A stretch of 60,438 bases of DNA, taken from positions 1-60,438 of the forward strand of contig CAYYWP010000004.1 of NCBI GenBank assembly GCA_964475125.1, in the 5' to 3' direction. The translations under genes and the position numbers were made by a program. Under the pieces are notes generated by a model, which saw only the letters and a list, made by a program, of their open reading frames with translations, was not told the origin of the DNA and ran no database searches. This DNA comes from an uncultured Candidatus Binatia bacterium (lineage in GTDB: Bacteria; Desulfobacterota; Binatia; HRBIN30; CADEER01). Positions 13,333-56,928 of the stretch are shown here, piece after piece (position 1 is the first letter of the stretch; each line of letters begins with the position of its first letter).

Positions 13333-13369
13333 CAAGGTTCCGCGCGTCGAGGTGATTGTCAGATCGAGG

Positions 13370-15693: not shown

Positions 15694-16407
15694 ATGAGAT
15701 TCGACACCGACACCGCGTTGTTCGGGGACTACGAAGAGCGGCTCACGGCGGTCCCGGACGCGCTGCGGCCGGTGAGTGTGCCCGACGGCGCGATTCATTC
15801 GCCCGTGGCGCGGGCGCTGAAGAGAAGTATCGACATCGTGGCGGCGGTCGTCTTGCTCGTATTCGGCACGCCGCTGTGCGTGTTGGTGGGGCTGGCGATC
15901 TGGCTCGAGGATGGTGAGCCCGTCCTGTTCCGACAGATCCGCGTCGGGCGCGGCGGGGCGCTCTTCACGCTCTACAAGCTGCGCTCGATGCACAAGGACG
16001 CGGAAGCCGCTAGTGGGCCGCAGTGGGCTGCGCCGGACGATGCGCGCGCCACCCGGGTCGGCCGCTGGATCCGCGCCTTGCGCATCGACGAGATCCCGCA
16101 AGCGTGGAACGTGCTCGTCGGCGACATGTCCTTCGTCGGCCCGCGCCCGGAGCGGCCCGAGTTCGTCGGCCCGCTGCACGCCGCCATCCCCGGCTACGAC
16201 CAGCGTCATCGCATCCGACCCGGCATGACGGGGTGGGCGCAAGTCAACCAGCCGTACAGCGGCACCCTCGGCGACGCGCAGCGCAAGCACGTCTACGATT
16301 TGCACTACCTGCAGAACTGGTCGCTCTCCCTCGACGTGCTCATTCTGGCGCGGACGGCCAAGATCGTTCTGTTCGGCTGGGGCGGTCGCGCGGCCGCTCC
16401 GAGATGA
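15694..16407 (+). CDS. Small monotopic phosphoglycosyl transferase (bacterial sugar transferase family, PglC / WbaP-C type); priming enzyme
   Basis: KRSIDIVAAVVLLVFGTPLCVLVGLAIWLEDGEPVLFRQIRVG...LYKLRSM...DEIPQAWNVLVGDMSFVGPRPERPEF are hallmark blocks. Confidence 0.9.
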   Translation: MRFDTDTALFGDYEERLTAVPDALRPVSVPDGAIHSPVARALKRSIDIVAAVVLLVFGTPLCVLVGLAIWLEDGEPVLFRQIRVGRGGALFTLYKLRSMHKDAEAASGPQWAAPDDARATRVGRWIRALRIDEIPQAWNVLVGDMSFVGPRPERPEFVGPLHAAIPGYDQRHRIRPGMTGWAQVNQPYSGTLGDAQRKHVYDLHYLQNWSLSLDVLILARTAKIVLFGWGGRAAAPR

Positions 16408-19708: not shown

Positions 19709-19795
19709 CCCGCATCGCGCCGCGAACCGCAGCGGTTGGGTTGCCCTAGTGTCCCGTCGCGGCGACGGGACACTAGCCCGTGAGTGATCTCTCCG

Positions 19796-21676: not shown

Positions 21677-21869
21677 TCTCGCCGCCGCCCCGGAGGTCGG
21701 CGATCCGGTCACTTCCACCAGGCGCTGCGGATCTGGGGCCTATGATACGGAGAGCATCGTGACCGCCCATCTCGCGTCCATGCTGGCCACCGTCGCGACC
21801 GCGTACCGGTTGTTGCTTTGGCAGCGGCCGTCGGCCATGCCCGCGGAGGCGACGCCTGTCGCGTGAGTC

Positions 21870-29059: not shown

Positions 29060-29086
29060 TGAACTGCCGCGAGTACGTCGGCGGCG

Positions 29087-30643
29087 TTGCTGGTCGAGAC
29101 CGGATGCCGAGCCGTCGACGACCATGACGCAAGACGACGCGCGAGTCTGGAGCGCCCGGCGTTGAGCGCGGTCTCTGCGAGCCCCCGCGACCGACGGGCG
29201 CACGGCTACCGCGACGCGGCGTGGAGTGTACTGGCCGCGGCGCTGCCCTTCCTGGTTTTCCTGCGCACGATGGCGCCGACGGTCTACGGCCTCGACAGCG
29301 CCGAGCTCAGCACCGGCGCGTATGCGCTCGGCATCGTGCACGCCCCGGGCAGCCCGACCTACATGCTGCTCGGCCATCTCTTCTCCCGCTTGCCGATCGG
29401 CGACGTGGGCTACCGCTTGAACCTCATGTCGGCGGTCGCGGCGGCGCTCGCCGCGCTCTTCCTGTTCCGCGTCCTGATGCGCCTCACCGGCGAGCGAGCC
29501 CTGGCCCTCGCGGGCAGTTGGTTTACCGCCTTCACCTACTACTTCTGGGTGAGCGCGCTGGCGGCGGAGCTGTACGCGCTGCATGCCGCATTCGTCGCCG
29601 GTCTGCTGCTGTTGGCGCTGCGCTGGCGCGAAGAGGCCCGTGCGTCCTCGCTCTGCCTGCTGGCGCTGCTGTTCGGCATCGGCGCCGGCAATCACATCGC
29701 CATGGTCCTGCTTCTCCCCGGCTTCGCCTGGCTCGCCGCAACCGGGCGCGCGGTGCCGTGGCGCCCGCTCTGGCTGGCGTCGGCGGCGGTCGCCTGCGGC
29801 CTCGTCGGTGCCGCCGTCTATCTGTATCTGCCTCTGCGCTACCTGTCGGACACGCCACTCAACTATGCGCGTACGTATTGGCACGTCGACCTCACCACCG
29901 CCGAGGGCTTGCGCTGGATGGTCACGGCGCGCCTGTTCAAGTCTTCGCTCTTCGGGGTGCTGGCGGCGGACCTGCCCGGCGAAGTGGCCACCTACCTGCG
30001 GCGGCTGTGGAGCAACTTCGCCGGCCTCGGTGTGTTGCTCGGCCTATTGGGCCTCATCGGGGACTTTCGCCGCCGGCCTTCGCTGCACATCGGCCTCGGG
30101 CTTCTCTTCGCGGCCCACCTCGCCTTCTATCTGTGCTACCGGGTCGGCGACAAGGAGCTCATGCTGTTGCCCACCTATTTGGTCTGGGCCGTATGGGCCG
30201 CGCTGGGGGCGCGAACGCTCTGTCGCCTCCTCGATCCATGGCTCGCCCCGCGCTGGTCGATCCCTGCCGCGGCGCTGCTGTTGGCCTTGGCGGCGGCGTG
30301 TCTGGTTGAGAACTTCGACCGCGTCGACCTCAGCCGCGACTGGTCGGCCCGACAGCGCGGGGAACGCATCCTCGCCAGCCTCGAGCCCGGCGCCGTCTAC
30401 CTCGGGACGTGGGCCGACGTGCCGATTCTCGAATACCTGCAGATCGTCGAGCGCGTTCGACCCGACGTGCGCACGGTGAACCTGTTCTTCACGCCCGGGC
30501 AGGGCGCGAGTATCGCCGGCGAGATGCTGCGCGGCCGCCGAGCCGTCTACACATCGGCGCCGCGTGTCCTCGCCGGCAGCGGACTCGGCCTCGATCCGGT
30601 GGCGGCATGCGGCTGCTACCGGGTATACCCGGCGGCCTCATAG
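29087..30643 (+). CDS. DUF2723-family polytopic membrane protein (TMEM260-type, GT-C fold; named GT117 in some annotations)
   Basis: FLVFLRTMAPTVYGLDSAELSTGAYALGIVHAPGSPTYMLLGHLF is the characteristic DUF2723 opening. About 11 TM segments, then a soluble C-terminal domain. Confidence 0.75.
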   Translation: MLVETGCRAVDDHDARRRASLERPALSAVSASPRDRRAHGYRDAAWSVLAAALPFLVFLRTMAPTVYGLDSAELSTGAYALGIVHAPGSPTYMLLGHLFSRLPIGDVGYRLNLMSAVAAALAALFLFRVLMRLTGERALALAGSWFTAFTYYFWVSALAAELYALHAAFVAGLLLLALRWREEARASSLCLLALLFGIGAGNHIAMVLLLPGFAWLAATGRAVPWRPLWLASAAVACGLVGAAVYLYLPLRYLSDTPLNYARTYWHVDLTTAEGLRWMVTARLFKSSLFGVLAADLPGEVATYLRRLWSNFAGLGVLLGLLGLIGDFRRRPSLHIGLGLLFAAHLAFYLCYRVGDKELMLLPTYLVWAVWAALGARTLCRLLDPWLAPRWSIPAAALLLALAAACLVENFDRVDLSRDWSARQRGERILASLEPGAVYLGTWADVPILEYLQIVERVRPDVRTVNLFFTPGQGASIAGEMLRGRRAVYTSAPRVLAGSGLGLDPVAACGCYRVYPAAS

Positions 30644-34096: not shown

Positions 34097-35428
34097 ATGG
34101 AGGTGCACTCGGAGCGGCGGAATGACCCGCCACCCCCTGCCGCCGATCGGCACCGTGCCGCCGCTCGGCGGCGGGTGCTGATCGTTACCCTCTATTACGC
34201 TCCCGGCAACACCAGTGGCAGCCTGCGCATGGTCAAGTTGACCAAGTATCTGGCGCGCTACGGTTGGGACGCCAGCGTGCTGACGGCGCCGACCGCGCGC
34301 TACGCGACGACCGACCCCGCTCTCCTGCTCGAGCTGCCGCGCAGCACGCGCATCTATCGCGCCCCGTGCTGGGATGCGCGGGTGGCGTTCGGCGTGCGCG
34401 GAAAGTACCCGGCCCTCGTCGAAGTGCCCGACCGCTACATCTCCTGGCTGCCGGGTGGCGTGTGGACCGCGCTGCGTGTCATGCGCGCCGATCGAGTCAG
34501 CGCCGTGCTGTCCACCAGCCCGGTCCCCACGGCCCATCTCATCGGGCGCATCGTCACGGCGCTCCGCCGCACGCCGTGGATCGCCGACTTCCGCGATCCG
34601 TGGCCATATGCGGAGCACCGGACGCGGCTGCGCCGCGGAGTCGAACGACGCTTGGAAGCGCTCGTGCTCCGCCACGCCGACCGCGTCCTCGCCAGCACGC
34701 CGGAGATTCTCGCTGCCCTCACCGCAGACGAGCCGCGGGTGGAACCGAAGGGCCAGGTGCTGTACAACGGCTACGACGAGGACGACATCGGCAGCGCCGA
34801 TGCGTCGGCCGATGCGGAGAGCGACTTCGTGCTCTTGCACGCCGGGCTGCTGCATCGAGACTATCGCAACCCCCGCGCCCTGCTGATCGCGGTGCAACGC
34901 TGTCTGCAGCGGGGGGGGCTGCCGCCGAGCACCCGGGTGAACCTGATGGCCGGCGGCGAGGATGGCATGGCCGCACTGGTCGAGGATCTGCGCCTCACCC
35001 TCGGCCTCGCCGACCGCGTGCACATCGGTGGGCGTCTGCCGCATCGACAGTCCGTCGCCGCCATGTCGGCAGCCTCGGTCCTGGTGCTGCTGCAGGGCGA
35101 GCGCATGCTGCCGCAAATTCCCGCCAAGGCCTTCGAGTATCTGCGCAGCGGACGGCCCATCCTGGCACTGGCGCCGGCGCACAGCGCCACGGCGCAGTTC
35201 GTACGCGGATTCGCGGGGGTCTACCTCGCCGCTCCAGATGATGTCGCGGCGATCGAACAGCGACTCGGAGAGATCGCCGACGCCTGGCGCGGTGGCCTGC
35301 GCCTCTTCGATCGGCGCGACGCCGTGCGGCGCTTCACCCGCGAAGCCGCGGCGCGCGAGTTGGCGGAGATGCTCACCGCGGTCAGCGGCGAGGTGAACGG
35401 CGCGCCGCTTGCCCGCCGAACGGTATGA
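34097..35428 (+). CDS. GT-B fold glycosyltransferase (GT4-like)
   Basis: RVLIVTLYYAPGNTSGSLRMVKLTKYLARYGWD opening. C-terminal KAFEYLRSGRPILALAP block. Confidence 0.7.
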   Translation: MEVHSERRNDPPPPAADRHRAAARRRVLIVTLYYAPGNTSGSLRMVKLTKYLARYGWDASVLTAPTARYATTDPALLLELPRSTRIYRAPCWDARVAFGVRGKYPALVEVPDRYISWLPGGVWTALRVMRADRVSAVLSTSPVPTAHLIGRIVTALRRTPWIADFRDPWPYAEHRTRLRRGVERRLEALVLRHADRVLASTPEILAALTADEPRVEPKGQVLYNGYDEDDIGSADASADAESDFVLLHAGLLHRDYRNPRALLIAVQRCLQRGGLPPSTRVNLMAGGEDGMAALVEDLRLTLGLADRVHIGGRLPHRQSVAAMSAASVLVLLQGERMLPQIPAKAFEYLRSGRPILALAPAHSATAQFVRGFAGVYLAAPDDVAAIEQRLGEIADAWRGGLRLFDRRDAVRRFTREAAARELAEMLTAVSGEVNGAPLARRTV

Positions 35429-36570
35429 CCATGCCATCGGGCCCGGCCGATACGGCGCCGGTGGCAGCGGTGCCGGCGGGCCGCGTCGATGTGAGCATTC
35501 ACGTGGTCGAACAACCCGATGCACAGGTACACGGACAGGTGCGTGCGTTTCTCGCCGCTGCGCCGGCCGGCTCGATCGCCTTCGCCGAGCACGATCCGGG
35601 CTGGTTGGACGTCCTCGCGGCGGGCCTTAGGCATCGTCCATACGCCGTCATCGCGCGGCGCGAGGGAGAGACGGCGGGGGAGGGGATCGTCGGCTATCTG
35701 CCGTTGGCCCTGACCACCAGCCGCATCTTCGGCCGCTTTCTGGTCAGCCTGCCGTACCTGGATCGGGCCGGGATCGTCGCCGCGGATTCGACCGTCGCCG
35801 CCGCGCTCATCGACGCCGCCGTTCGCCTTGCCGCAGCAGTGGACGCCGACTACCTCGAGCTGCGGCAGGAACGCGTACACGTACACCCGGCGCTGACGGC
35901 GCAGCGATCCGACAAGGCGCGCCTGGTGCTGGGGCTGCCGGCGACGGCCGACAACTTGTGGCAGCAGGTCGGTAGCAAGGTGCGCAATCAGGTGCGCAAG
36001 GGCGAACGAAACGCGCTGACGGTTCACTGGGGCGGCGCGGAGCTGGTCGACGAGTTCTACACCGTATTCGCCGCCACCATGCGCGACCTCGGCACGCCGG
36101 TGTTTTCTCGGCGGCTTTTCGATCAGCTTCTGGAGCGCTTTGCGACCGCAGCCGAGCTCGCTGTGGTGCGACATCGCGGACGCCCGCTGGCCGCGGCGCT
36201 GCTCATCCACACCCGCGGCGGCGGTCTCACGCCACAGACACACGTCCCCTCTGCGGCCAGCCTGCGGCGGGCGCGCAGCATGAACGCCAACATGTGGATG
36301 TACTATCAGCTCCTGGTGCGCGCCATCGAGCGCGGCAGTCATCTGTTCGACTTCGGGCGTTCCACCGTCGACTCGCCGACCTACCGTTTCAAGCAGCAGT
36401 GGGGCGCGCACGCGCAACCGACGGTCTGGCAGTACCACGTGCGCCGCGGCACCATCGACGCCGCGCGCCCACACGACCCGCGTTTCGCACTGGCGCGTGC
36501 GCTGTGGCGTCGCTTGCCGGTCGCGGTCACGCGGTGGCTCGGTCCGCCCCTCGCCCGCGGCCTCCCCTGA
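35425..36570 (+). CDS. FemAB-family protein, PEP-CTERM-system-associated type
   Basis: ATGA overlap at 35425. GYLPLALTTSRIFGRFLVSLPYLDRAGIVA...DYLELRQ...MRDLGTPVFSRRLF...MWMYYQLLVRAIERGSHLFDFGRS are family blocks. Confidence 0.8.
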   Translation: MTMPSGPADTAPVAAVPAGRVDVSIHVVEQPDAQVHGQVRAFLAAAPAGSIAFAEHDPGWLDVLAAGLRHRPYAVIARREGETAGEGIVGYLPLALTTSRIFGRFLVSLPYLDRAGIVAADSTVAAALIDAAVRLAAAVDADYLELRQERVHVHPALTAQRSDKARLVLGLPATADNLWQQVGSKVRNQVRKGERNALTVHWGGAELVDEFYTVFAATMRDLGTPVFSRRLFDQLLERFATAAELAVVRHRGRPLAAALLIHTRGGGLTPQTHVPSAASLRRARSMNANMWMYYQLLVRAIERGSHLFDFGRSTVDSPTYRFKQQWGAHAQPTVWQYHVRRGTIDAARPHDPRFALARALWRRLPVAVTRWLGPPLARGLP

Positions 36571-36586: not shown

Positions 36587-37213
36587 TCAGGCCAGGTGCC
36601 GGTGCGGTGTATCCATCACCGTCACCTCGAAGTAGGGCTTGGAAGAACCGCGGACTTGAACTGCGGCACCGAGCTCGGCCTGCCAGCGCCGTGCGGCGGC
36701 GCGCTCTTCGTCCCGACCAGCATCATCGAGGAGGATGACGCAGCCCGGCCCGAGCCGTTCCTGCATGATCGGGACCAGGCCGTATCGCCCTCCTTTGGTG
36801 TCGGCGGGAGGGCCATCACAGATGACCACGGAGAAACTGTCGGGCATCGCTGCCAAGGGGGCGTCGTACCAACAATAGGGACCATGGTCGCTGAGAGGAT
36901 CCGTGCACAGGACGACGCGATCGAGCTGGTACCTCTTCAGACATCGCTGCACTTTGGCGGCCCACTCCGGTTTGTGCTCGAGCGCCCAGTGGCTTCGGCC
37001 GCGCTTGGTCGCGATCGCCCCAACCAAGATCGTGGACAGCCCGGAGCCGCATTCCAATATCGGCCCGCGCGCGGTCAGCGCGTGCTGCAGGCACGCGGCG
37101 AGGTACTCGTCCTGAGCACTCCAAGCCTCATTCCCCCACCCGTAGATCAAATCGATCAGGACGGGGTGTCCAGGATGGGAACAGGCGGCGGGATCTCGCA
37201 GGAACCGCGTCAT
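36587..37213 (-). CDS. Putative class I methyltransferase-fold protein
   Basis: ATG 37213 gives MTRFLRDP...LIYGWGNEAWSA...ILECGSGLSTILVG (motif I-like)...VVICDGPP. The longer track ORF runs antisense through the RHH gene and is rejected. A GTG at 37282 is an alternative start. Confidence 0.5.
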   Translation of the reverse strand: MTRFLRDPAACSHPGHPVLIDLIYGWGNEAWSAQDEYLAACLQHALTARGPILECGSGLSTILVGAIATKRGRSHWALEHKPEWAAKVQRCLKRYQLDRVVLCTDPLSDHGPYCWYDAPLAAMPDSFSVVICDGPPADTKGGRYGLVPIMQERLGPGCVILLDDAGRDEERAAARRWQAELGAAVQVRGSSKPYFEVTVMDTPHRHLA

Positions 37214-37406
37214 GGCTCGCGAGAAAACGAACTGGCGGTGTGCCGTCCGAAGAAGCCGTCGAATTCGAAAGAGTGATTTCACCTCTTTGAGAATGCGGCA
37301 AACCGCGTGATCTTGTCGATCGTCGGGCGTCGGCGCTCTGCGGCGCCATCTCCGCCAGGGCGCGGTGTGTCTTGCGGTGCCGTCGCAGCGTATTACACGA
37401 TGGATC

Positions 37407-37661
37407 ATGAAATCGCTGACCGTGCGCCTGCCGGAGCCGTTGGTGCGCGAGATCGAGGCCGAGTCATGGGCCCGCGGCGTGTCCAAGTCCGACGTCGTGC
37501 GCGAGCGCCTGGCGCGGGCGCCGGAAGGCCGCGGCGCGGCCGATCCGGCGGCGGCAGTCGCCGACCTCATCGGCGCCGTCGACGGGCTTCCGGCTGACAT
37601 GAGCGGCCGGCGCAAGGCCTCCCTGCGTTCCACCGGGTATGGTCAGAAGCGTCCTGGTTGA
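37407..37661 (+). CDS. Ribbon-helix-helix (CopG/MetJ-type) antitoxin-like protein
   Basis: ATG 37407 gives MKSLTVRLPEPLVREIEAESWARGVSKSDVVRERLA, the classic RHH beta-alpha-alpha opening. Overlaps the following PIN-like ORF by 23 nt. Confidence 0.75.
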   Translation: MKSLTVRLPEPLVREIEAESWARGVSKSDVVRERLARAPEGRGAADPAAAVADLIGAVDGLPADMSGRRKASLRSTGYGQKRPG

Positions 37662-43531: not shown

Positions 43532-44563
43532 GTGTCGTTCGCGCTGCGCTGTGTCACCGCCGCCGAGGAACAGGCGTGGAACGACCGCCAGCTCGCCACA
43601 CCGGTCACTGCCCCGCGCCTGGCGTTCTGGACGTATCGCGACACGGCCGTCGTGGTCGGACGGTCGCAGCGCCACGGTGCGGGCACCGACTGTCCCGCCG
43701 CGTTCCGCTCGCCCTTCGACGGGCTCAGGGCGAGCGGAACGCTCGACGGCGGATGTCCCTTTCCGCTCGCGCTGAGCCCAGCCAAGCATGAGCGCGCGCT
43801 GCTTCCACCGCCTGCTAGCCCTTTCCTGCTCACGCTGAGCCCCCCCAAGCATGAGGGCGCGCTCCTTGCACCGCCCGCTAGCCCTTTCCCGCTCATGCTG
43901 AGCCCGTCGCAGCATGAGCGCGCGCTCTTTCCACCGCCTGCGAGTCCTTTCCCGCTCATGCTGAGCCTGTCGAAGCATGAGCGCGCGCTTTCTCGGACGC
44001 CTGCTCGGGTGCCGATCGTTCACCGCCGTTCCGGCGGTGGCGCGGTGCTGGTCGGGCCCGAGGTGCTCGGCGTGTCCGTGCTGCTACCGCTGGAACACCC
44101 GTTCGCCGTCTCGGGACTCGTGTCTTCTTATGAATGGTTCGGATGCGCGCACGCGCGCGCCTTGCGGCGCCTGGGAGTGCTATGTGAGGCCGTCAGCCCC
44201 AAGGCACTGCCCCGCGCCGCCGCCGACCCGATTGCGGCCTGGGCTTGCTTCGGTGCGGTATCGCCGTGGGAAGTCGTGACACTCACCGGTCGCCGCAAGC
44301 TCGTCGGCCTGGCCCAGCGGCGCACGCGCACCGGCGTGCTGCTCGTCAGCGGCACTTTGATCGAGGACCAGCGATGGGACGTCCTCTGCGATGCCCTCGG
44401 CCAGTCGGTCGAAGCCGCCGCCATCCTGCGGGGATCGACATCGTCATGCCGCCGCGAGCTCGGGAAGTCGATCGCCGTCGCCGACGTCGCCCGACGGGTT
44501 GCCCGCGAGCTCGACGTCGCACTGCGCTTCGAGATGCCACCCGGCGCGCAGGGCGAGCCGTAG
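43532..44563 (+). CDS. Lipoate-protein ligase family protein (BPL/LplA/LipB catalytic domain) carrying an approx 100-aa in-frame repeat-derived insertion
   Basis: GTG start. Landmarks VVVGRSQ, HRRSGGGAVLVG and GRRKLVGLAQRR (catalytic Lys context). Residues between the first two landmarks are encoded by the repeats at 43702..44007. The stop codon lies inside the 56-bp repeat 44555..44610. Confidence 0.7.
   Translation: MSFALRCVTAAEEQAWNDRQLATPVTAPRLAFWTYRDTAVVVGRSQRHGAGTDCPAAFRSPFDGLRASGTLDGGCPFPLALSPAKHERALLPPPASPFLLTLSPPKHEGALLAPPASPFPLMLSPSQHERALFPPPASPFPLMLSLSKHERALSRTPARVPIVHRRSGGGAVLVGPEVLGVSVLLPLEHPFAVSGLVSSYEWFGCAHARALRRLGVLCEAVSPKALPRAAADPIAAWACFGAVSPWEVVTLTGRRKLVGLAQRRTRTGVLLVSGTLIEDQRWDVLCDALGQSVEAAAILRGSTSSCRRELGKSIAVADVARRVARELDVALRFEMPPGAQGEP
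43702..43740. repeat. REP-like hairpin, family A, inside a coding sequence
   Basis: gttccgctcgccct-tcgacgggctc-agggcgagcggaac: perfect 14-bp stem, 11-nt loop identical to the loop at 27458..27468. Confidence 0.85.
43756..44007. repeat. Tandem array of four 63-nt family-A-related hairpin units inside a coding sequence
   Basis: Units start near 43756, 43819, 43882 and 43945. Units 3 and 4 keep perfect stems (cgctcatgctg..cagcatgagcg). Units 1 and 2 are decayed. The period of 63 nt equals 21 codons. Confidence 0.9.
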
Positions 44564-44610
44564 CCGTGGAACCCGTGCCCGCCGGCAGCGCCGCGCGCTG
44601 CCCGGTGGGG
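44555..44610. repeat. 56-bp GC-rich palindromic element, family E, copy 1
   Basis: gagccgtagccgtggaacccgtgcccgccggcagcgccgcgcgctgcccggtgggg is 53/56 identical to 56951..57006. It contains the stem ccggcagcgc/gcgctgcccgg. Both copies lie at gene 3' ends. Confidence 0.85.
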
Positions 44611-44669
44611 TAATCACTCGCCAGAAAAATCCCCTTGTTCCTTATGCTCGGGCTGGCAGGCTAGAGGGA

Positions 44670-47600
44670 ATGACGGACGGGCGTAGTGAAATGAGACGGG
44701 TGTCGGGCGGGAGAATTGGTTTGCTCGCGGCGTTGGCCGCGCTCGGGCTGGCGGCGTGCGGTGGCGGCGGTGGAAAGAGCCCGACACCGGGCGCACCGGT
44801 GCTGGATCCGATCGAAGATCAGCAGATCGAGCCGACCCGCTCGCTCGTCCTGGCGCTGACGGCCACCGACGCCGAGGGCGATCGCCTCGTCTATTCCAGC
44901 ACGGCGCTGCCCGCCAATGCCGCGCTCGTCCCGTCGACCGGCTTGTTCGTCTTCACCCCCGATGCGAGCCAGGCCGGCACGAGTCAGACCATCACCTTCA
45001 CCGTCAGCGACGGCGAGCAGGAGGACCACGAGCGCGTCCGCATCCGCGTCACTCGCTCCGTGCCGCCCACCAATCTCAGTCCCGATCTGGCGCCGATCGG
45101 CGACCACACGGTGCGCGCCGGTTCGACGCTGACCCTGCAGCAGAGCGCTACCGACCCGGAAAACGATCGGATCACCTTCAGCGTCCACCCGGCGCTGCCG
45201 CCCAATGCGACCTACGACAGCCACACGGGCCGCTTCACGTTTGCCCCGTCGGCGGCTCAGAAAGGGACGTACCCGTTCAGCTTCGTCGCCAGCGACGGCA
45301 ACAGCGCCGATTACGAAACCGTGCACATCGCCGTCACCGACGGCGACACGCCGTGCGCGGTGAGCACGCCGGCCGGGTGCGCGCCGCTGCCGACCGCCAC
45401 GCCGAGCACGCCAGCGCCCCCGTCCGCCACCCCGGCGACGCCGCCCAATCTCGTCATCACCAACCAGTGCTACACAGTTTCGTCCGGCAGCTACACGTAC
45501 AACTACGTCAACGTCGCCGAGGGTGGCCAGCTCATCTTCCTCGACGACGGCGGCACCATCGACTTCCGCGTCAGCTCGATGCTGGTGGAGCAGGGCGGCT
45601 CGGTACAGGCCGGCTCGCTCGAGTGCCCCTTCGGCTCGGCCGACGGCAAGCTGAAGATCGGCCTCTGGGGTACCGATCCGACCCAACAAGGAACGGTATT
45701 GAGCCCTACGCCGGCGGGGATCACCTGCGTCGGGACGACGATGAACCCGGGCGAGTGCTTCGATCCGGCGCTGACCGAATCGCCGCACTACTGCATGGAA
45801 CCCGATCCATCCGGGACGTGGAGCCCGAGTGACCCGTGCAACGTCACCCTGCCGAGCGATCAGCAGCAGGCCAACGGCAATGCCCTCTTCGAAGGCTACG
45901 ACGCCCTGAACTTCGACTACGGCGAGAACTACTTCGGCTACAAGGTGTTCGCCGTCAGCTATGGCGGCAGCGTGCAGTTCTTCGGTCGCAAGGGCGTCGC
46001 CGACGCGGACCTGTCGCCGACGCCGCCGACCACCTGCGACACGCCGGAGAATCAGTACGACGTCAACCAGTGGGCGGCGCTCAGCGGCTCGAGCTGGGCG
46101 CGCCTCGACCAGACGGTCAGCGCCGGCCAGACGATGGTGACGCTCGACCGCCCGGTCGATTGGGAAGAGGGCGATCAGGTCGTCGTGGCGACGACGGACT
46201 GGTACCCGAGTCACTCCGAGCTGATGGAGGTCCAGTCGGCGTCCACCACCGGCGGGCAGACGACCCTGACGCTCGACGGGCAGTTCTCATACGCTCATAA
46301 CGGGCAGACCTATGCCGTGCCGGAGACGCTGCGCACCAACGCGGGCAACCCCAACACCGAGGTCGAGCTGCGCGCCCCCGTCGGCCTGCTGACGCGCAGC
46401 ATCGTCATCTACTCGCTCGGCGAGACTCCCGACCAGCCGTTCCCGAGCCCGCCGTCGGGAAACGAGCAGCCGAGCCAGGAGTGGCTCAACTGCAGCTACG
46501 CCAACAACGGCGCGACACCATCGCCCGCTGCAACACCGTCGGCGACACCATCGGCGACGTCGTCGCCGACGGTGGCGCCCCATCCCGAGTGCTACTTCGG
46601 CGGTCACGTCATCGTGCGCCAGGGGTTTGGCACCTTCCAGGCACAAGGCGTCGAATTCCGCCAGCTCGGCCAGGGCGGCCGCATGGGGCACTATCCCATG
46701 CACTTCCACCTGGCGAAGTCGACCGACTACACCGATGCCTTCCTCAAGGACAGCTCGATCTGGGATTCGATGAACCGCTTCGTGGTCCTGCACGCCTCCC
46801 ACGGCATCACCGTGGCGCGCAACGTCGGCTTCCTCTCGATCGGCCATGCCTACTACCTCGAGGACGGCTCGGAGATCGAGAACCTGCTCTGTCACAACCT
46901 CGCCGTCTCCGTGCGCGGCGCGCTGAACGAGTTCTTCGCGGCCCAGCCGGTGCAGGATCCCTCGTACCGATTCGTGCCGCCGATCCTCGACGCCACCGAA
47001 GAAGAGGCGGGTGGGACATGTGCGTTCGGCGGCGACACGCTCCTTCCCACCGCGTTCTGGACCATGAACACCTGGAACGAGCTGGTCGGCAACGCCGCAT
47101 CCGGCGTGTACGGCTTCGGCTCCTGTTACTGGCTGCTGGGCTCGGGGGTGAGCGGACCGAGCAACAGCCCAGATTTCACCTGGTCGAAGAACACCGACTC
47201 GCCGGCCGACTACGCCGACTTCAACCTCGCCGGCACCCAGCAGGCTCCCCTCAAACGCTTTCGCGGCAACTCGTGCAGCAGCGCCGGCTACGGTCTGCAG
47301 AGCACGCTCCAAATCGAGCCGGTGGGCAACACGCCGCTGCTCACCGGCTTCACGCCCTCCACCAATCCTTACCTCACCAACAATCCGACGCAGTTCGACC
47401 GGCCGATGGTCACCGGCAACTATCTGCCGGTGAAATATGGCACCAACCCGAGCTGTGCGAGCGGCTATCCGGAGGAGAGCCAGTTCGCCTCCAACCCCGA
47501 CTACTGCGTCACCACGGTGATCGACCGCTTCACCACCTCGTTCAATCGCGCCGGCGCCAACTTCGCCGCGGTGTGGCTACGGCCGGAGTGGTTCGTGTTC

Positions 47601-50102
47601 ATGAACGGTGCGGTGACCGACCAGCTTGCCGGCGGCCTCACTTTCGTCACCGGTGGGAGCTGGACGCAGACCCCGCCCGGGTATTTCGCCATCACCAAGA
47701 ACAGCGTCTTCGTCGGCTCCACGCAGCCCGACAATCCTGACGCGGCGCCGATCGGCCCGGCCGTGTGCCCGAGCCCGACGCCGTCGACGACCTGCGCGCA
47801 AGCCTGCAGCGGCGGGGTCTGCCCGTTACCGGCCGATGGCATCGGCCTGTTCACCGGCGGCCTCAATCCGAAGCGCATGATCAGCATCTACGACGGGCCG
47901 TTCTACGCCGACGGCACGGTGTTCACCGACACGTCGCCGTTGACGTGCAACACGACGGGGCCGGCGCCGTACAACGACCCGAACGGTTGCCAGATCTACT
48001 CCTCGACTACTCAGCCGGAATACCAGAATCCGAACCCGACTCCGGGCGCGACCCCGCAGCCGCAGATGAACGTCGTCAATGCGGCGGTGGGCTGGAAGCA
48101 GCCGAACGGCTTCTATTATCCCCCGGCATTCGCCTTCCGGAAGTCCGCCTTCGATACCGCCACCTTCCGCCACAACGTCATCGATCAGTACGCCAACTAC
48201 TTGCAGGGGTCGCTGGCGGCTCCCGACTGCACGACGACGCCTTCCGGATGCCCGGCGCGCTTCGTGCCGCTCGGCGAGACGTACCCGGGCATCACGCCGA
48301 TCGACTTCTCCACCATCCTCAACGACATGGACGGCAGCTTGACCGGCTGGGTGCCGCAGGGCGGCACGCGCACTTCCTCGGTGAGCAAGAACGTCTTCTT
48401 CGACGCCCCCTCGCAGGATGCCGAGTGCCAGTCGTTCGGCGTGCAGACCGCGCCCTACGAGTTCGTGTCTTCGGTGATCGCCCCGCTCGGCGGTACGAGC
48501 CCGAATCAATACGTCGACCCCACGGTGTGGGGGATCGCCAACCTCCCCGCGGTGCCGATCTACCGCCAGCTCGCCCTGCCGGATGACCAGTGCCTGGGCG
48601 ACCAATCGGTGTGCTGCGCCCCCGGCCAGCAGGACTGCCCGGTCGGCACCGTCGGCTGTACGCGCGCCAGCTTCATGCTCGGCGGCCAGAACGGCCAGGC
48701 GCCGTACCTCACCTCGAACAACGGCGTCTACTACATCGACACCAACAAGCAGGAGGACAACCCGAGCTGCTTCATGCAGGCGCAGGTGTTCGAGCCCGGC
48801 TTCGCGGCCGATCAGTCGTACGTGCTCTACAACCTGTTCGCCAACGAGAACACCAAGGTCACCTATCAGCTTTACGTCGGCGACGGCTTCCAAGCCTCGG
48901 CCGGCCAGTGGGTGTTGGTGCAGCCGCATGTCTTCAGCACCTCCTCCGGACAGGGCGGCAATGCCACGGTGGTCACGCCCATCACCGATGCGCCGACGCT
49001 CGCCACCCTGAACGCCGGCGTGAGCGTGAGCAACGGCATCCTGCAGGTGGTCCTCAATCACTCCGCCATCGCCGACGACTATCTGTTCTCCAGCCGTCCG
49101 GACTACGACGTCTGCCTGCCGCGCGATATCTGTCAGATCGACACCAGCTCGCCGACACCGACCTCCTGCACCATCCAGGCGCAACCCAGCTTCCTCGACG
49201 GCAACGCTACCGACTACGCCGACTATCAGGCCGCCGTGACCGACATCTGCGAATACTGGGCGACTGCGACCGCCGGCCGCACCTCGCTGCCCAACACGCC
49301 GGGCGACGATGCCGACGATCCGATCTTCGCCGACTGTCCCACCGGCGGCTGCCTCGGTTACGCCTTCACCCTGCCGTCGAGCTTCACGCCCATGCCGTAT
49401 GCGGCCGTCGCGCCGACGCCCGGCTGCTTTGAGGCAGGCACCTGGAACATCTCGATGAGCTCGATCGACCCGGACTGCCCGACGCCGGCGCCTCCCGATC
49501 CCAGCGCGTTTTGCTCCGGCGGCACGCCGACGCCGACGCCAGGGACGCCCGGCGCGACGCCGACGGCTACGGCGACGAACGGCCAATTGGCTACCGCAAC
49601 TGCGACCGGTACCGGACCTGCCGCCACCGAAACGCCGACCGTTCCGCCAACCACGGCGGCCGCGACCGCGACGGCAACTCCCGGGATCGCGACGCCGACT
49701 CCCACCGGGTCGCTTCCGGAAGCAACCCCTACTCCGACACCACTCACGACTCCGACCGGCTCGCTCGTCTGGGTCTTGAACGGCAGCACCACCACGGCGA
49801 CGCTCACCGGGATATCGACCAGCGGCACGACCTATACGCAGGGGCAGCTCGCGCTGCAGGACGCGCAACAGCGCTTCTGCACCGCGACCGGAACGTTCCC
49901 GGTCCTCCAGGTCGTCGTCTCCTCGACCGACCTGCAAACGATCGGCCTATTCCCGGTCACCAGCATGGAGACCGTCGGCATCAGCGCGCTTCCCGCCGTG
50001 TCGGCCGGCACCTACGACGTGCAGATCCAGACCTTCCCCGGCTGCGACAGCACCAAACCGCCCATCTTCATCACTATGCCCAGCGCGATCATGTACGAGT
50101 GA
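44670..50102 (+). CDS. Giant lipoprotein (approx 1810 aa): two He_PIG-type Ig-like domains, a G8 domain, a CEMIP/TMEM2-like parallel beta-helix core, a long Cys-rich region, a Thr/Pro linker and an unknown C-terminal domain
   Basis: - Start: ATG 44670 or 44691 gives the signal LLAALAALGLAAC (lipobox). The 44391 start in the track is an Arg/Ser-rich artefact that overlaps the previous gene.
- Ig-like repeats: about 44796..45054 and 45087..45342 (TATDAEGDRLVYSSTALPANA... / SATDPENDRITFSVHPALPPNA...).
- G8-like region: about 45444..45675 (VNVAEGGQLIFLDDGGTIDFRVSSMLVEQGGSVQAGS...KLKIGLWG).
- Core block: GRMGHYPMHFHL...SIWDSMNRFVVLHASHGITVARNVGFLSIGHAYYLEDGSEIEN (about 46680..46880). It parallels the LGRYPIHFHL...GHCFFTEDGPEE block I recall from CEMIP. 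Confidence 0.8.
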   Translation: MTDGRSEMRRVSGGRIGLLAALAALGLAACGGGGGKSPTPGAPVLDPIEDQQIEPTRSLVLALTATDAEGDRLVYSSTALPANAALVPSTGLFVFTPDASQAGTSQTITFTVSDGEQEDHERVRIRVTRSVPPTNLSPDLAPIGDHTVRAGSTLTLQQSATDPENDRITFSVHPALPPNATYDSHTGRFTFAPSAAQKGTYPFSFVASDGNSADYETVHIAVTDGDTPCAVSTPAGCAPLPTATPSTPAPPSATPATPPNLVITNQCYTVSSGSYTYNYVNVAEGGQLIFLDDGGTIDFRVSSMLVEQGGSVQAGSLECPFGSADGKLKIGLWGTDPTQQGTVLSPTPAGITCVGTTMNPGECFDPALTESPHYCMEPDPSGTWSPSDPCNVTLPSDQQQANGNALFEGYDALNFDYGENYFGYKVFAVSYGGSVQFFGRKGVADADLSPTPPTTCDTPENQYDVNQWAALSGSSWARLDQTVSAGQTMVTLDRPVDWEEGDQVVVATTDWYPSHSELMEVQSASTTGGQTTLTLDGQFSYAHNGQTYAVPETLRTNAGNPNTEVELRAPVGLLTRSIVIYSLGETPDQPFPSPPSGNEQPSQEWLNCSYANNGATPSPAATPSATPSATSSPTVAPHPECYFGGHVIVRQGFGTFQAQGVEFRQLGQGGRMGHYPMHFHLAKSTDYTDAFLKDSSIWDSMNRFVVLHASHGITVARNVGFLSIGHAYYLEDGSEIENLLCHNLAVSVRGALNEFFAAQPVQDPSYRFVPPILDATEEEAGGTCAFGGDTLLPTAFWTMNTWNELVGNAASGVYGFGSCYWLLGSGVSGPSNSPDFTWSKNTDSPADYADFNLAGTQQAPLKRFRGNSCSSAGYGLQSTLQIEPVGNTPLLTGFTPSTNPYLTNNPTQFDRPMVTGNYLPVKYGTNPSCASGYPEESQFASNPDYCVTTVIDRFTTSFNRAGANFAAVWLRPEWFVFMNGAVTDQLAGGLTFVTGGSWTQTPPGYFAITKNSVFVGSTQPDNPDAAPIGPAVCPSPTPSTTCAQACSGGVCPLPADGIGLFTGGLNPKRMISIYDGPFYADGTVFTDTSPLTCNTTGPAPYNDPNGCQIYSSTTQPEYQNPNPTPGATPQPQMNVVNAAVGWKQPNGFYYPPAFAFRKSAFDTATFRHNVIDQYANYLQGSLAAPDCTTTPSGCPARFVPLGETYPGITPIDFSTILNDMDGSLTGWVPQGGTRTSSVSKNVFFDAPSQDAECQSFGVQTAPYEFVSSVIAPLGGTSPNQYVDPTVWGIANLPAVPIYRQLALPDDQCLGDQSVCCAPGQQDCPVGTVGCTRASFMLGGQNGQAPYLTSNNGVYYIDTNKQEDNPSCFMQAQVFEPGFAADQSYVLYNLFANENTKVTYQLYVGDGFQASAGQWVLVQPHVFSTSSGQGGNATVVTPITDAPTLATLNAGVSVSNGILQVVLNHSAIADDYLFSSRPDYDVCLPRDICQIDTSSPTPTSCTIQAQPSFLDGNATDYADYQAAVTDICEYWATATAGRTSLPNTPGDDADDPIFADCPTGGCLGYAFTLPSSFTPMPYAAVAPTPGCFEAGTWNISMSSIDPDCPTPAPPDPSAFCSGGTPTPTPGTPGATPTATATNGQLATATATGTGPAATETPTVPPTTAAATATATPGIATPTPTGSLPEATPTPTPLTTPTGSLVWVLNGSTTTATLTGISTSGTTYTQGQLALQDAQQRFCTATGTFPVLQVVVSSTDLQTIGLFPVTSMETVGISALPAVSAGTYDVQIQTFPGCDSTKPPIFITMPSAIMYE

Positions 50103-50282: not shown

Positions 50283-51444
50283 GGGGACGTAGGGCCGGGG
50301 AGGCCGGGTGTGACGGACTCACCGTGGATCGGATCTGCGCAGCCAGTGCGTGCAGCGAGTGCGAAGTGAAGGGTCCTCGGCTATCCGTAACGGATGCCGC
50401 GGGGTCCGCGTCTCGATTTCAGTGGCGCCCTCCATCACGTCATCGTCCGCGGTATCGAGCGCGGGCGCATCTTCCGTGACGGTCGCGACCGCGCCGAGTG
50501 TCGCGAGCGGCTGGGCCGGGCGCTTCGTGACGGCGGCGCGGCGCTGTACGCTTGGTGCTTCATGCCCAACCATGCCCATGCGTTGGTGCGCACGGGGGCG
50601 GTTCCCCTCTCGCGGGTGATCCAGCGCTGGCTCGGTCACTACGCGGTGCGCTTCAATCTCCGCCATCGACGCGCCGGTCATCTGTTCCAGAATCGCTTTA
50701 AGAGCACCCTGGTCGAGGAGGAGCGGTATTTTCTCGAGCTGGTGCGCTACATCCACCTCAATCCTGTCCGCGGGCAACGGCCGCTTGTCACGCTCGACGG
50801 GCTGGACAACTACCGCTGGAGCGGGCACGCAGTCTTGCTCGGTCGCCAGAGTTTCGCGGCGCAAGACACGGACTTCGTCCTGCGGCAGTTTGCTGCCCGT
50901 GCCGGACCAGCGCGCAGTGGCTACCGCGCCTTCGTGCGCGCCGGAAACGGTCGGCACGCGGCGCTTGACCTGGACGGCGGCGGGCTGCGGCGCAGCGCCG
51001 GCGGTTGGTGGATGGTGCGCGTGCTGGCACGCGGCCGTGAGCGTTGGGCGCACGACGAACGGGTGCTCGGCGACGGCGAGTTCGTCAATCGCGTCGTGCG
51101 CGAATCGATCAGTGCCTTCGCCCCGCCAGCGGCGAATCCGGCAGAGCTCGTGACCAACCTGTGCGGCCGATTCGCCTCGCGGTTCGCCCTCACCCCGGCG
51201 GAGGTGGCTCGGCCGAGCCTGCGCGCCCCCGTGCTCGATGCACGTGCACTCGTGAGCGAGGCGGCCGTGCGCGAGCACGGTCTGCCCCTGACCACAGTCG
51301 GACGGCAGCTTGGCGTGTCCAAGCAGAGCATCGCTCGCGCCCTTCTGCGCGCTGCCAGGCTGCGCCACGGGCGATGACAGACCGCGGAGGCATACGCGGG
51401 TTGGCGCTCTATCCTCACCCCGGCCGACCCGGCCCTACGTCCCC
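50283..51444. mobile_element. RAYT-type unit: HUH transposase gene bracketed by 17-18-bp perfect inverted repeats
   Basis: ggggacgtagggccgggg (50283..50300) is the exact reverse complement of (c)cccggccctacgtcccc (51428..51444). Confidence 0.7.
50394..51377 (+). CDS. IS200/IS605-type Y1 HUH transposase, REP-associated (RAYT-like), with a C-terminal DnaA-domain-IV-like HTH
   Basis: MPRGPRLDFSGALHHVIVRGIERGRIF. HUH motif HAH at 50571..50579 (FMPNHAHALV). Catalytic Tyr context LVRYIHLNPV. C-terminal LPLTTVGRQLGVSKQSIARALLRA. Confidence 0.85.
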   Translation: MPRGPRLDFSGALHHVIVRGIERGRIFRDGRDRAECRERLGRALRDGGAALYAWCFMPNHAHALVRTGAVPLSRVIQRWLGHYAVRFNLRHRRAGHLFQNRFKSTLVEEERYFLELVRYIHLNPVRGQRPLVTLDGLDNYRWSGHAVLLGRQSFAAQDTDFVLRQFAARAGPARSGYRAFVRAGNGRHAALDLDGGGLRRSAGGWWMVRVLARGRERWAHDERVLGDGEFVNRVVRESISAFAPPAANPAELVTNLCGRFASRFALTPAEVARPSLRAPVLDARALVSEAAVREHGLPLTTVGRQLGVSKQSIARALLRAARLRHGR

Positions 51445-51517
51445 TTGTGGTACCCCCCCCTACGTCCCCTTGTGGTACCGCCCCTTGTGGTACCCGCTAC
51501 GTCCCCTTGTGGTACCC
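51435..51517. repeat. Tandem short repeats (CTACGTCCCCTTGTGGTACC, 3 full units plus 1 partial)
   Basis: Full units at 51435..51454, 51460..51479 and 51497..51516. Partial unit at 51481..51495. They immediately follow the right inverted repeat of the RAYT unit. Confidence 0.85.
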
Positions 51518-55702: not shown

Positions 55703-55731
55703 TTTCTCAACCAACTGCGTGAGGAGGAACC

Positions 55732-56928
55732 ATGGCGCCGAAGAAAACCATCTACACCGCTCCGAGTCTCAAGTGGACCGATTCGCTGCCCACCGGCAGC
55801 GCCTGCGTGCGCGTCGGCGACCTGCTCTGCATCAGCGGCCAGGTCAGCCTCGATGCCAAGTTCCGCGCCGTCGCCGCGGGCGACGTCAAGGCGCAGGCGC
55901 GCAACATCTTCAGCCAGATCCAGGCCGCCGTCGAAGCGGCCGGCGGATCGCTGGACGACGTCCTCGACCTGCTCTCGTTTCACAAGGACTGCCGCCAGCT
56001 CATGGACGTGGTGGAGGTCGCCAGGGAGTTCTTCAAGAAGGACTATCCGGCGTGGACGGCGATCGGCACCACGGGCACCTATGACCCCGACCTGCTGGTG
56101 AGCATCAAGGCGATCGCGCACCTCGGCAAGGAAAAGAAGCAGTGCTACACCCCGGACTCCGTCAAGTGGTTCCGCAGCCTGCCGCTGTCGGCCGCCTGCC
56201 GCAAGGGCAACCTGATGTTCCTCTCCGGCCAGGTGTCGGTCGATCCGGACGGCAACATGGTGGCGCCCGGCAATCACGCGCTGCAGGCGCGACAAGCGTG
56301 GGTGAACATCAAGTCCGTCATCGAGGCCGCCGGCGGCACGCTCGATGACGTCATCGAAACCCTGTCGTTCCACGTCGACCCGCGCGGCATGGAGATCGCC
56401 GGCGACCTGGTCCTGGCGGAGGTCTGGGGCCAGACCCCGCTGGCAAACGCGGCCTCGTGGACGGCGATCGGCACGCCGGCGCTGTATGCCCTGGGGATCA
56501 TGGGCGAGTACCGCACGATGGTCGATTTCAGCCCCGGCAAGCGCATCGCCCACACACCCGACACGATCTGGTGGCGTGTCATCCCCGTCTCCGGCGGCAG
56601 CAAGAAAGAGGGCGGCACCCTGATCGCCGTCTCCGGCCAGGTCTCCTCGGACGGCGACGGCAACATCCTGCACGCCGGCGACGTCGCCGGGCAGGCGCGC
56701 TACGACTTCAAGCAGATCCGCAGGATCCTGGCCGGCTTCAACGCCACGCTCGATAACATCGTCGAGATCACCTCCTTCCACAAAGACATCCGTGCCTGGG
56801 AGACCGTGATGAAGGTCGGCGCCGAGCACTTCCGCAAGGGCGAGGCGCCGGCGTGGACGGCGGTCGGCATGTCGGGCATGTGGAAGGAAGGCTACCTGCA
56901 CGAGATCCACGCCCTCGCGGTGGTGTGA
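55732..56928 (+). CDS. Triple-domain RidA/YjgF/UK114-family protein (three tandem Rid domains in one chain)
   Basis: GAGGAGGAAC precedes ATG 55732. Three collinear approx 130-aa repeats each have the pattern [LI]xxSGQV...A[QG]xQA...I...AGG[ST]LD[DN][IV]...[ST]FH...[PS][AS]WTA[IV]G. Confidence 0.85.
   Translation: MAPKKTIYTAPSLKWTDSLPTGSACVRVGDLLCISGQVSLDAKFRAVAAGDVKAQARNIFSQIQAAVEAAGGSLDDVLDLLSFHKDCRQLMDVVEVAREFFKKDYPAWTAIGTTGTYDPDLLVSIKAIAHLGKEKKQCYTPDSVKWFRSLPLSAACRKGNLMFLSGQVSVDPDGNMVAPGNHALQARQAWVNIKSVIEAAGGTLDDVIETLSFHVDPRGMEIAGDLVLAEVWGQTPLANAASWTAIGTPALYALGIMGEYRTMVDFSPGKRIAHTPDTIWWRVIPVSGGSKKEGGTLIAVSGQVSSDGDGNILHAGDVAGQARYDFKQIRRILAGFNATLDNIVEITSFHKDIRAWETVMKVGAEHFRKGEAPAWTAVGMSGMWKEGYLHEIHALAVV

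Follow-up and report, generated by a model that had tools for sequence, protein, structure and literature searches.

CEMIP and TMEM2 are animal proteins that carry a G8 domain and a beta-helix. They matter medically in hyaluronan turnover, cancer, deafness and arthritis, and their status as enzymes is debated (PMC10206443, PMC11275217, PMC13113925). Here we describe a bacterial relative of these proteins, encoded at positions 44670-50102 on the plus strand of contig CAYYWP010000004.1 (NCBI GenBank assembly GCA_964475125.1) from an uncultured Candidatus Binatia bacterium. The whole stretch of DNA that was analysed (60,438 nucleotides) is called the window below. The gene encodes a protein of 1,810 residues with the signal peptide of a lipoprotein, and the core of this protein is homologous to CEMIP/TMEM2 in sequence, profile and fold.

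The animal proteins have been studied in some detail. Hyaluronan is degraded by mouse TMEM2 and, in one study, by the purified human ectodomain (PMC10474455). Recombinant CEMIP is inactive in vitro and the activity of human TMEM2 is disputed (PMC10206443, PMC10276149, PMC10474455, PMC12423501): in one study the soluble human protein had no hyaluronidase activity, and the crystal structure gave no assignable active site (PMC10206443, PMC12423501). Hence, CEMIP and TMEM2 are not the settled hyaluronan depolymerases for which the original prediction, made from the letters of the window, had taken them. In the structure of TMEM2 the G8 domain belongs to the helix, a first lectin-like domain (about 26% identical to the stem domain of POMGNT1) is inserted beside a small sandwich, and a second lectin-like domain comes after a 'domain X' that is, according to the crystallographers, unrelated to other known structures (PMC10206443). 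The substitutions that are reported to abolish activity, at R187 in CEMIP and R265 in TMEM2, map to lectin-like domain 1, and the same domain sets the difference between mouse and human TMEM2 in hyaluronan degradation (PMC10206443, PMC12423501). A 2024 review gives PKHD1 as the only other G8 protein (PMC11275217), and a 2026 review of microbial hyaluronidases includes no CEMIP-type enzyme and calls the mechanism of CEMIP unresolved (PMC13113925).

A CEMIP/TMEM2-like core in a bacterial lipoprotein

A sequence search of the whole PDB returned the human TMEM2 ectodomain (8C6I) as the only significant match, with E=1e-20 for the single sequence and E=2.1e-54 for a profile of 100 homologues. The alignment falls into co-linear pieces: the G8 segment, one helix rung, a small beta-sandwich (LDRxVDWxxGDxIVV...), the helix core and residues 946-1018. 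Two other names that came up in the PDB searches, a RES domain (0.48) and Rv2302 (0.28), were dismissed as chance. An AlphaFold2 model of residues 258-1457, built from 51 sequences, has a mean predicted local distance difference test score (pLDDT) of 86 and a predicted template modelling score (pTM) of 0.90. When it was compared with the PDB by Foldseek, 8c6i_A ranked first (E=8.7e-31, template modelling (TM) scores of 0.49/0.47). After it comes a gap of about 22 orders of magnitude to the following matches (1e-8 to 1e-4), among them the Klebsiella phage K1 capsule lyase, a GH87 alpha-1,3-glucanase, GH110 and phage tailspike depolymerases, while the viral library BFVD gave the same classes, with generic phage depolymerase helices only (TM<=0.17). 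All significant structural matches after TMEM2 are enzymes, namely beta-helix polysaccharide lyases or hydrolases. The original prediction had suggested this structural search and had considered a well-known adhesin or protease fold as the contrary outcome; what the search returned was TMEM2, followed by beta-helix lyases and hydrolases.

The gene and its parts are as follows (residue limits given as approximate are so marked).

44670..50102, plus strand: whole gene, a 1,810-residue lipoprotein of the bacterial G8/CEMIP-beta-helix family (open reading frame, GC content at third codon positions, Pfam, full-length homologues)
44670..44759, plus strand: signal peptide with lipobox LAAC (sequence); the mature protein is predicted to start with a lipidated Cys30 (44757-44759)
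44793..45053, plus strand: immunoglobulin (Ig)-like repeat 1 of the Big_9/Cadherin_5/He_PIG type, residues ~42-128 (Pfam)
45090..45344, plus strand: Ig-like repeat 2, with the best He_PIG stretch, residues ~141-225 (Pfam)
45447..45686, plus strand: G8 segment, residues ~260-339, first rungs of the beta-helix (Pfam, TMEM2 alignment, model)
45687..45929, plus strand: Cys-rich insert, residues ~340-420 (no TMEM2 counterpart for profile positions 140-211)
45930..46469, plus strand: helix rung and small beta-sandwich insert, residues ~421-600 (matches the small sandwich of TMEM2)
46593..47285, plus strand: CEMIP-type beta-helix core, residues 642-872 (PF24606; TMEM2 8c6i)
46677..46898, plus strand: most conserved block and candidate functional site, residues 670-743 (invariant or at least 95% conserved in 100 homologues)
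47286..48440, plus strand: continuation of the beta-helix with long loops, residues ~873-1257, boundary approximate (alignment, models, conservation)
48441..49523, plus strand: family-specific C-terminal module, residues ~1258-1618, predicted as a beta-sandwich followed by a Cys-rich alpha/beta subdomain (model)
49524..49757, plus strand: Thr/Pro-rich disordered linker, residues ~1619-1696 (37% Thr, 22% Pro; pLDDT ~29)
49758..50099, plus strand: terminal beta domain of ~114 residues (eight predicted strands, pLDDT 55-78; no Pfam match)

The open frame extends over 44391-50102, with the stop codon at 50100-50102, and the ATG at 44670 gives the 1,810 residues. The GC content at third codon positions is 0.87, like that of other genes in the window (window GC 69%). 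The closest homologues P0002-P0006 and P0009 have 20-29 residues before the lipobox Cys, and P0007 and P0008 have fewer, so that the start may be either the ATG at 44670 or the one at 44691, which give comparable lengths. The N-terminus (MTDGRSEMRRVSGGRIGLLAALAALGLAAC) has a basic n-region, a hydrophobic core and then the lipobox LAAC at residues 27-30, which satisfies the bacterial lipoprotein pattern [LVI][ASTVI][GAS]C. A GLAAC/VGC lipobox is kept in all eight closest homologues, and a regular-expression test found the same signal type in 39 of 115 Met-starting homologues, many of the others having plain Sec signals. We expect the protein to be lipidated at Cys30 and exposed at the cell surface. 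It has 44 Cys, many of them invariant in the family. A promoter scan gave no promoter-like site, and a terminator scan gave one terminator-like site, fewer than expected from shuffles. The GC skew of the coding strand is strongly negative at 46000-50000 (-0.10 to -0.15, the minimum of the window). It coincides with the Thr/Pro/Ala-rich composition of the protein, and is probably an effect of codon usage.

Pfam recognises three kinds of domain when run on the whole protein: the two Ig-like repeats (Big_9/Cadherin_5), G8 and CEMIP_beta-hel. He_PIG is absent from that whole-protein scan, but appears at E=3.6e-17, in two stretches, when residues 36-230 are scanned alone, where it overlaps Big_9 (6.6e-18) and Cadherin_5. 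These repeats are variable accessories, with an occupancy of ~0.3-0.4 in the family alignment. The G8 match (PF10162, residues 255-339) has E=1.4e-9 and 38.3 bits against a cut-off of 22.9; the segment aligns with the start of the TMEM2 chain 8c6i_A and is modelled with a pLDDT of 95-98. The Cys-rich insert that comes next has four invariant Cys at residues 353, 363, 375 and 390 (A1 positions 96, 106, 118 and 133). Further on, residues 479-585 align to TMEM2 chain residues 326-415, and the loop at residues 601-640 is lineage-specific. The strongest match is that of CEMIP_beta-hel (PF24606, residues 642-872), with E=5.5e-41 and 141 bits against 27.3. It contains two core motifs, GRMGHYPMHFHL at residues 670-681 and NRFVV...SEIEN at residues 702-738, and both of these line up with human TMEM2 (YPVHFHL ... 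GHCFFLEDGIEQRN) residue by residue. Pfam and NCBIfam gave no match on residues 335-640, 1020-1620 and 1690-1810, even at E<=10. Thus, the lipobox signal, the two He_PIG-type repeats, the G8-like segment and the CEMIP/TMEM2-like pattern of the core block, all noted in the original prediction, are borne out by these searches, with E-values well outside what chance would give.

The bacterial protein and TMEM2/CEMIP are alike in having G8 at the start of the helix and a CEMIP-type core with YPxHFH ... R ... H ... GHxxxLEDGxExxNxxxHN. The two are disulfide-rich extracellular proteins, and their folds also agree in the region that follows the helix. However, the identity to TMEM2 over the structural alignment is only ~15%, and several parts differ. 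Lectin-like (GG) domain 1 is absent from the bacterial protein: at its site the bacterial family has ~50 profile positions where TMEM2 has ~179 residues, and no GG/ILEI-type Pfam match was found on the whole protein, nor on segments at E<=10. No second lectin-like domain was detected by sequence either. In turn, the bacterial protein adds the Cys-rich insert (residues 340-420), the family-specific module (residues ~1258-1618) and the N-terminal Ig repeats, and it has a lipobox where TMEM2/CEMIP have a type II transmembrane helix or are freely secreted. Since it lacks lectin-like domain 1 and has the Cys-rich insert, we regard it as a member of a wider G8/CEMIP-helix superfamily and not as an orthologue of the hyaluronan-specific proteins. 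The absence of this domain also makes hyaluronan an unlikely substrate. Furthermore, as the enzyme status of CEMIP/TMEM2 is disputed and no active site could be assigned to them, the homology carries over no catalytic mechanism.

The wider comparison is with beta-helix depolymerases, such as the Klebsiella phage K1 capsule lyase (7W1C), GH87 (6K0V), GH110, phage tailspikes and chondroitinase B (PL6). They share the right-handed parallel beta-helix, act extracellularly on long glycans, and match the bacterial lipoprotein at the Foldseek values of 1e-8 to 1e-4 given above. Yet the TM scores are only 0.1-0.3, the identities are only 6-11%, and their catalytic motifs and Pfam models are unmatched; the tailspikes are trimeric, whereas the lipoprotein has a monomer-type architecture. 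Large surface glycanases tethered by an N-terminal lipid are known from Klebsiella (pullulanase PulA) and Bacteroides (SusG). Their catalytic fold, GH13, is unrelated, and their genes sit in loci dedicated to utilisation or secretion, whereas the gene described here stands alone.

Conserved residues and the C-terminal half

Conservation was measured over 100 homologues, which share 38-78% identity with the query. Between residues 416 and 1399, 81 Asp/Glu/His/Lys/Arg/Asn/Gln/Tyr/Trp positions reach a conservation of 95% or more, and human TMEM2 has the identical residue at 17 of them (Y675, H678, H680, Y687, S700, R703, H708, H726, E731, D732, E735, N738, N743, D789, W797, N803 and N808). Such strong conservation of polar and aromatic residues favours an enzyme. 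The densest block, residues 670-743, holds Y675, H678, H680, K683, Y687, S700, R703, H708, R717, N718, H726, E731, D732, E735, N738 and N743, and is the candidate functional site. In the model, the first strands of four successive rungs are GHVIV (645-649), MHFHLAKS (677-684), VVLHASH (705-711) and YYL (728-730, then EDG), and the conserved His and acidic residues fall on or just after the first strand of these four consecutive rungs. Given these positions, alternating His and acidic residues could form a ladder along one face of the modelled helix.

The Pfam helix is followed by 938 residues. The original prediction described about 900 residues rich in Cys and aromatic residues that it could not assign. 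The composition was right (3.5% Cys and 11% Phe+Tyr+Trp over residues 873-1618), while most of the region turned out to be assignable, as part of the TMEM2-like unit. Residues 946-1018 align to TMEM2 chain residues 687-753, the models show short periodic strands, and the continuation of the helix carries the invariant motifs IYDGP (1073-1077), GWKQPNGFYYPP (1141-1152) and RHNV (1167-1170). A second model, of residues 1020-1810, has a pLDDT above 90 over most of residues 1220-1610, and mostly 90-98 in the C-terminal module. Its sole Foldseek match in the PDB is TMEM2 8c6i (E=3.1e-7, 429 columns). As this fold match is to TMEM2 only, the region after residue 1020 would, at least partly, be the end of the TMEM2 helix and 'domain X'. 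The models thus suggest that part of the C-terminal region, which may or may not include the last ~350 residues, corresponds to TMEM2, and their secondary structure places the limits of the C-terminal module at approximately residues 1258-1618. Fragments of GH51 and of botulinum HA70, also returned by Foldseek, were rejected as C-terminal relatives (E>0.2).

The family alignment has high occupancy and identity over residues ~265-1615, and these collapse only at the Ig repeats, the loop at residues 601-640, the Thr/Pro linker and the last ~114 residues. Hence, the helix and the next ~750 residues make up one conserved unit. The terminal beta domain occurs in ~30% of the homologues (occupancy ~0.3). 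We also searched residues 1040-1618 alone against 1.84 billion representative proteins, and obtained 374 matches at E<=1e-3, 237 at E<=1e-10 and 47 at E<=1e-30. In all full-length proteins found, the matched stretch comes after an N-terminal part of the size of the helix. The C-terminal module never stands alone, and in full-length proteins it always comes after a CEMIP-type helix.

Bacterial relatives and genomic neighbourhood

The homology search with residues 260-1618 returned 190 proteins. Nearly all full-length matches cover 96-100% of this query at 38-78% identity, the closest relatives (67-78%) being metagenomic proteins. Databases, NCBI among them, already label relatives 'G8 domain-containing protein', and PF24606 recognises them, so the existence of bacterial homologues is not new at the level of annotation. 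These entries have the same unit of ~1,350 residues and the same invariant residues, and vary in their accessories: Ig repeats, linker, terminal beta domain, and a lipobox or a Sec signal. The JGI name 'cell surface hyaluronidase' on two homologues is evidently an annotation transfer. In the literature that was searched, no paper characterises or discusses a bacterial G8/CEMIP homologue, in line with the earlier expectation of a family with essentially no characterised bacterial member. What is new is a CEMIP/TMEM2 scaffold without lectin domains and with its own C-terminal module and a predicted lipid anchor.

A scan of one genome per GTDB species gave 116 encoded relatives. The carriers are Candidatus Binatia/Binataceae, many Acidobacteriaceae of peat and bog, Thermoanaerobaculia and Myxococcota, including the isolate Sorangium sp. 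So ce726 (CP150349.1). Further carriers are Methylobacter tundripaludum OWC-G53F, which is cultured and has its homologue on NZ_PTIY01000011.1 at about 79.9-83.2 kb, Methylocella, Methylocapsa, Burkholderiales, Telluria, Geobacter and Rokubacteria. Six metagenome-assembled genomes have two paralogues each (L006/L019, L008/L013, L014/L016, L033/L034, L032/L074 and L047/L078), and the divergence of these pairs suggests a diversification of substrate. One relative is eukaryotic: CAOG_08583 (P0045) of Capsaspora owczarzaki is a full-length copy of the bacterial type, 42% identical over 99% of the query and ~52% identical to its nearest bacterial relatives on conserved columns. The C-terminal module is present, GG domains are not recognisable, and leucine-rich repeats are fused to the protein. 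Coming from a unicellular holozoan, it bears on the origin of animal CEMIP/TMEM2, by vertical ancestry or by ancient transfer.

In the window, the genes upstream of the lipoprotein gene encode an acyl-CoA dehydrogenase, a luciferase-like monooxygenase, 2-oxoacid dehydrogenase E1 and E2, and a lipoate ligase-like protein. Downstream are a Y1 transposase of the RAYT (REP-associated tyrosine transposase) type and a molybdenum hydroxylase. The best named matches of a neighbouring CoxL-like molybdoenzyme are in Candidatus Binatia (80% and 78% identity), in keeping with the origin of the window. Farther upstream lies an exopolysaccharide (EPS) island, which also holds a UDP-GlcNAc 2-epimerase, several glycosyltransferases of family GT4 and a UDP-sugar dehydrogenase, besides the following features.

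10073-36570: XrtA/PEP-CTERM (exosortase A)-type EPS island (family matches)
11383-13335 (minus strand) and 19784-21676: TIGR03108 amidotransferases
15694-16407: TIGR03013 priming glycosyltransferase
21867-23201: TIGR03097 O-antigen-ligase-like protein with DUF5935
29063-30643: TMEM260-like membrane protein of the protein O-mannosyltransferase type
35425-36570: FemAB-family TIGR03019 protein

The island that the original prediction placed 7 kb away is real. Its end is ~8 kb upstream of the gene, or ~7 kb if the open reading frame at 36587-37633 is counted in. Six genes lie in between, five of lipid/2-oxoacid metabolism and one unassigned open reading frame. We surveyed the neighbourhoods of 84 homologous loci (flanks of up to 8-10 kb, crude open reading frame calls, all-against-all BLAST clustering) and found no conserved neighbour family. 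The largest cluster is present in 8 of the 84 loci, and the recurring clusters that were inspected are generic paralogues: Ser/Thr kinase, histidine kinase, response regulator, ABC ATPase, acyl-CoA synthetase and short-chain dehydrogenase/reductase. No EPS gene recurs near the homologues across these loci. As no neighbour is conserved, the tie to the nearby island is unsupported. A secreted glycoside hydrolase (GH) adjoins the homologue in two loci, as isolated cases and with no conserved pattern: a GH81 beta-1,3-glucanase-type protein of 1,463 residues in a 71%-identical metagenomic locus (L001, 15727-20118, minus strand) and a GH62 gene in Sorangium sp. So ce726 (L005, 8085-9383, minus strand).

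Some other features of the window are worth recording. The IS200-like Y1 transposase (RAYT-type, PF01797) lies directly downstream of the lipoprotein gene at 50394-51377 and is followed by tandem 25/37-bp repeats (CCCCTTGTGGTACC…) at 51433-51516; a Y1_Tnp gene is also found near the homologue in a Binatia locus (L004). The lipoate ligase-like open reading frame (43532-44563) contains, at 43757-43989, a 63-bp unit repeated 3.7 times in frame with 86% matches, encoding repeats of ~21 residues (…PFPLMLSPSQHERALFPPPAS…). In view of their short palindromes (GCTCA-CGC-TGAGC), these repeats may be an insertion resembling repetitive extragenic palindromes (REP) and not true coding sequence. Finally, a protein of 401 residues made of three tandem RidA/L-PSP domains (PF01042) is encoded at 55723-56928, downstream of a CoxL/CoxM-like molybdenum hydroxylase pair.

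Proposed function and its alternatives

We propose, with a probability of roughly 0.55, that the protein is an enzyme tethered to the cell surface, where it would act as an endo-depolymerase on an extracellular polysaccharide. It is exported and probably lipid-anchored via Cys30, with the two Ig-like repeats holding the body away from the membrane. The body (residues ~265-1615) would form a single rigid unit, a long right-handed beta-helix that starts with the G8 segment, carries the small beta-sandwich as an insert, and ends in the family-specific beta-sandwich and alpha/beta module. A glycan chain may then lie along the groove of the helix and be cleaved at a site made of invariant residues on successive rungs (H678/H680, H708, H726, E731/D732 and E735), with R703, N738 and N743 close by, through either acid/base hydrolysis or a metal-assisted mechanism. 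Neither hyaluronan nor the EPS of the cell itself is as likely a substrate as a glycan of the environment or of foreign microbes. The original prediction of a surface polysaccharide enzyme is partly supported: the homology to CEMIP/TMEM2 is confirmed, whereas we infer that the protein is catalytic, where its active site lies and what kind of substrate it takes. The carriers are polymer-degrading bacteria of soil and peat, which we count, together with the paralogues and the GH neighbours, as the behaviour of a carbohydrate-active enzyme (CAZyme).

Several observations weigh against an enzyme of this kind. The fold itself has no established activity or mechanism, even in animals, and the residues of TMEM2/CEMIP that are known to matter belong to the missing lectin-like domain 1. 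No GH, polysaccharide lyase (PL) or Beta_helix model of Pfam matches at E<=1 on the whole protein or at E<=10 on segments, and none of five longer homologues examined has a fusion to a carbohydrate-binding or known CAZyme domain. Across the 84 loci there is no conserved transporter, regulator or sugar-catabolic neighbour. That the conserved residues cluster in one groove is itself a supposition, which calls for caution. The chief alternative is that the protein is not catalytic at all, but a glycan- or matrix-binding adhesin or scaffold with the beta-helix as a rigid platform. The Ig-like repeats, the long Thr/Pro linker and the lack of catabolic genes nearby fit such a role, beta-helix adhesins exist (PfbA is in the Foldseek list, at only E=0.024), and a binding role has been proposed by some authors for human TMEM2, whose soluble form showed no detectable activity or assignable active site (PMC10206443; PMC10276149). 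However, the surfaces of adhesins are usually variable, whereas this family has 81 near-invariant polar and aromatic residues, with His/Glu/Asp clusters kept from bacteria to humans. Every significant structural match after TMEM2 is an enzyme, and chains of hyaluronan are degraded by the mouse protein and, in one study, by the purified human ectodomain (PMC10474455). We hold a purely binding role to be unlikely.

There is a slim chance that the protein is an enzyme which trims or remodels the XrtA/PEP-CTERM-type EPS made by the island at 10-36.6 kb, one of the two targets that the original prediction suggested. Enzymes that trim the EPS of their own cell are known (PslG, PelA, AlgL and RbmB), some with a beta-helix, and RbmB is in the Foldseek list at E=0.07; the same replicon carries a complete EPS island, the end of which is ~8 kb upstream of the gene. 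Nevertheless, such glycanases are normally encoded inside their operon, whereas six genes intervene here, and the neighbours that recur, in 8 of 84 loci at most, are generic paralogues with no EPS gene among them. The suggestion of a self-EPS target is therefore unsupported. Improbable as well, in our view, is a different chemistry on the same scaffold, with the protein acting as an epimerase, as a polysaccharide modifier or on a polymer other than a carbohydrate. The pectate-lyase-like fold does house mannuronan C5-epimerases and other activities, and the His-rich conserved ladder is not a canonical GH/PL motif, in keeping with the missing GH/PL matches in Pfam. But the structural neighbours are depolymerases, and the sole functional data for the superfamily concern the scission of hyaluronan chains (PMC12423501). 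As for a true bacterial hyaluronidase, or glycosaminoglycan-degrading enzyme equivalent to CEMIP/TMEM2, the homology to TMEM2 and the transferred JGI names speak for it. It is nonetheless very improbable: the lectin-like GG domain 1 that TMEM2/CEMIP need to degrade hyaluronan is absent (PMC12423501), the hosts are free-living in soil, peat and sediment with no obvious source of hyaluronan, and the window has no glycosaminoglycan-utilisation genes near the gene.

Within the proposal of a surface depolymerase, one may tentatively go further, although we would rather doubt than expect it. The bacterial family might be a self-sufficient, catalytically active ancestral form of CEMIP/TMEM2, founding an unclassified family of glycoside hydrolases or lyases. 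On the same doubtful footing, the shared ladder (H678/H680/H708/H726/E731/D732/E735 with R703/N738/N743) might be the active site of CEMIP/TMEM2 too, and the lectin domains of the animal proteins might be later additions for hyaluronan specificity.

The bacterial family keeps the helix core and the 17 polar residues shared with TMEM2, and is free of the lectin domains, as well as of the glycosylation and cell-context dependence of the animal proteins. It thus offers a simple prokaryotic system in which to ask whether the fold is catalytic and where its site lies, with cultured carriers in M. tundripaludum OWC-G53F and Sorangium sp. So ce726. For microbial ecology, the recurrence of so large and conserved an exported protein in Binatia, peat Acidobacteriaceae and Myxococcota may point to a way of turning over polymers in soil that has yet to be catalogued.

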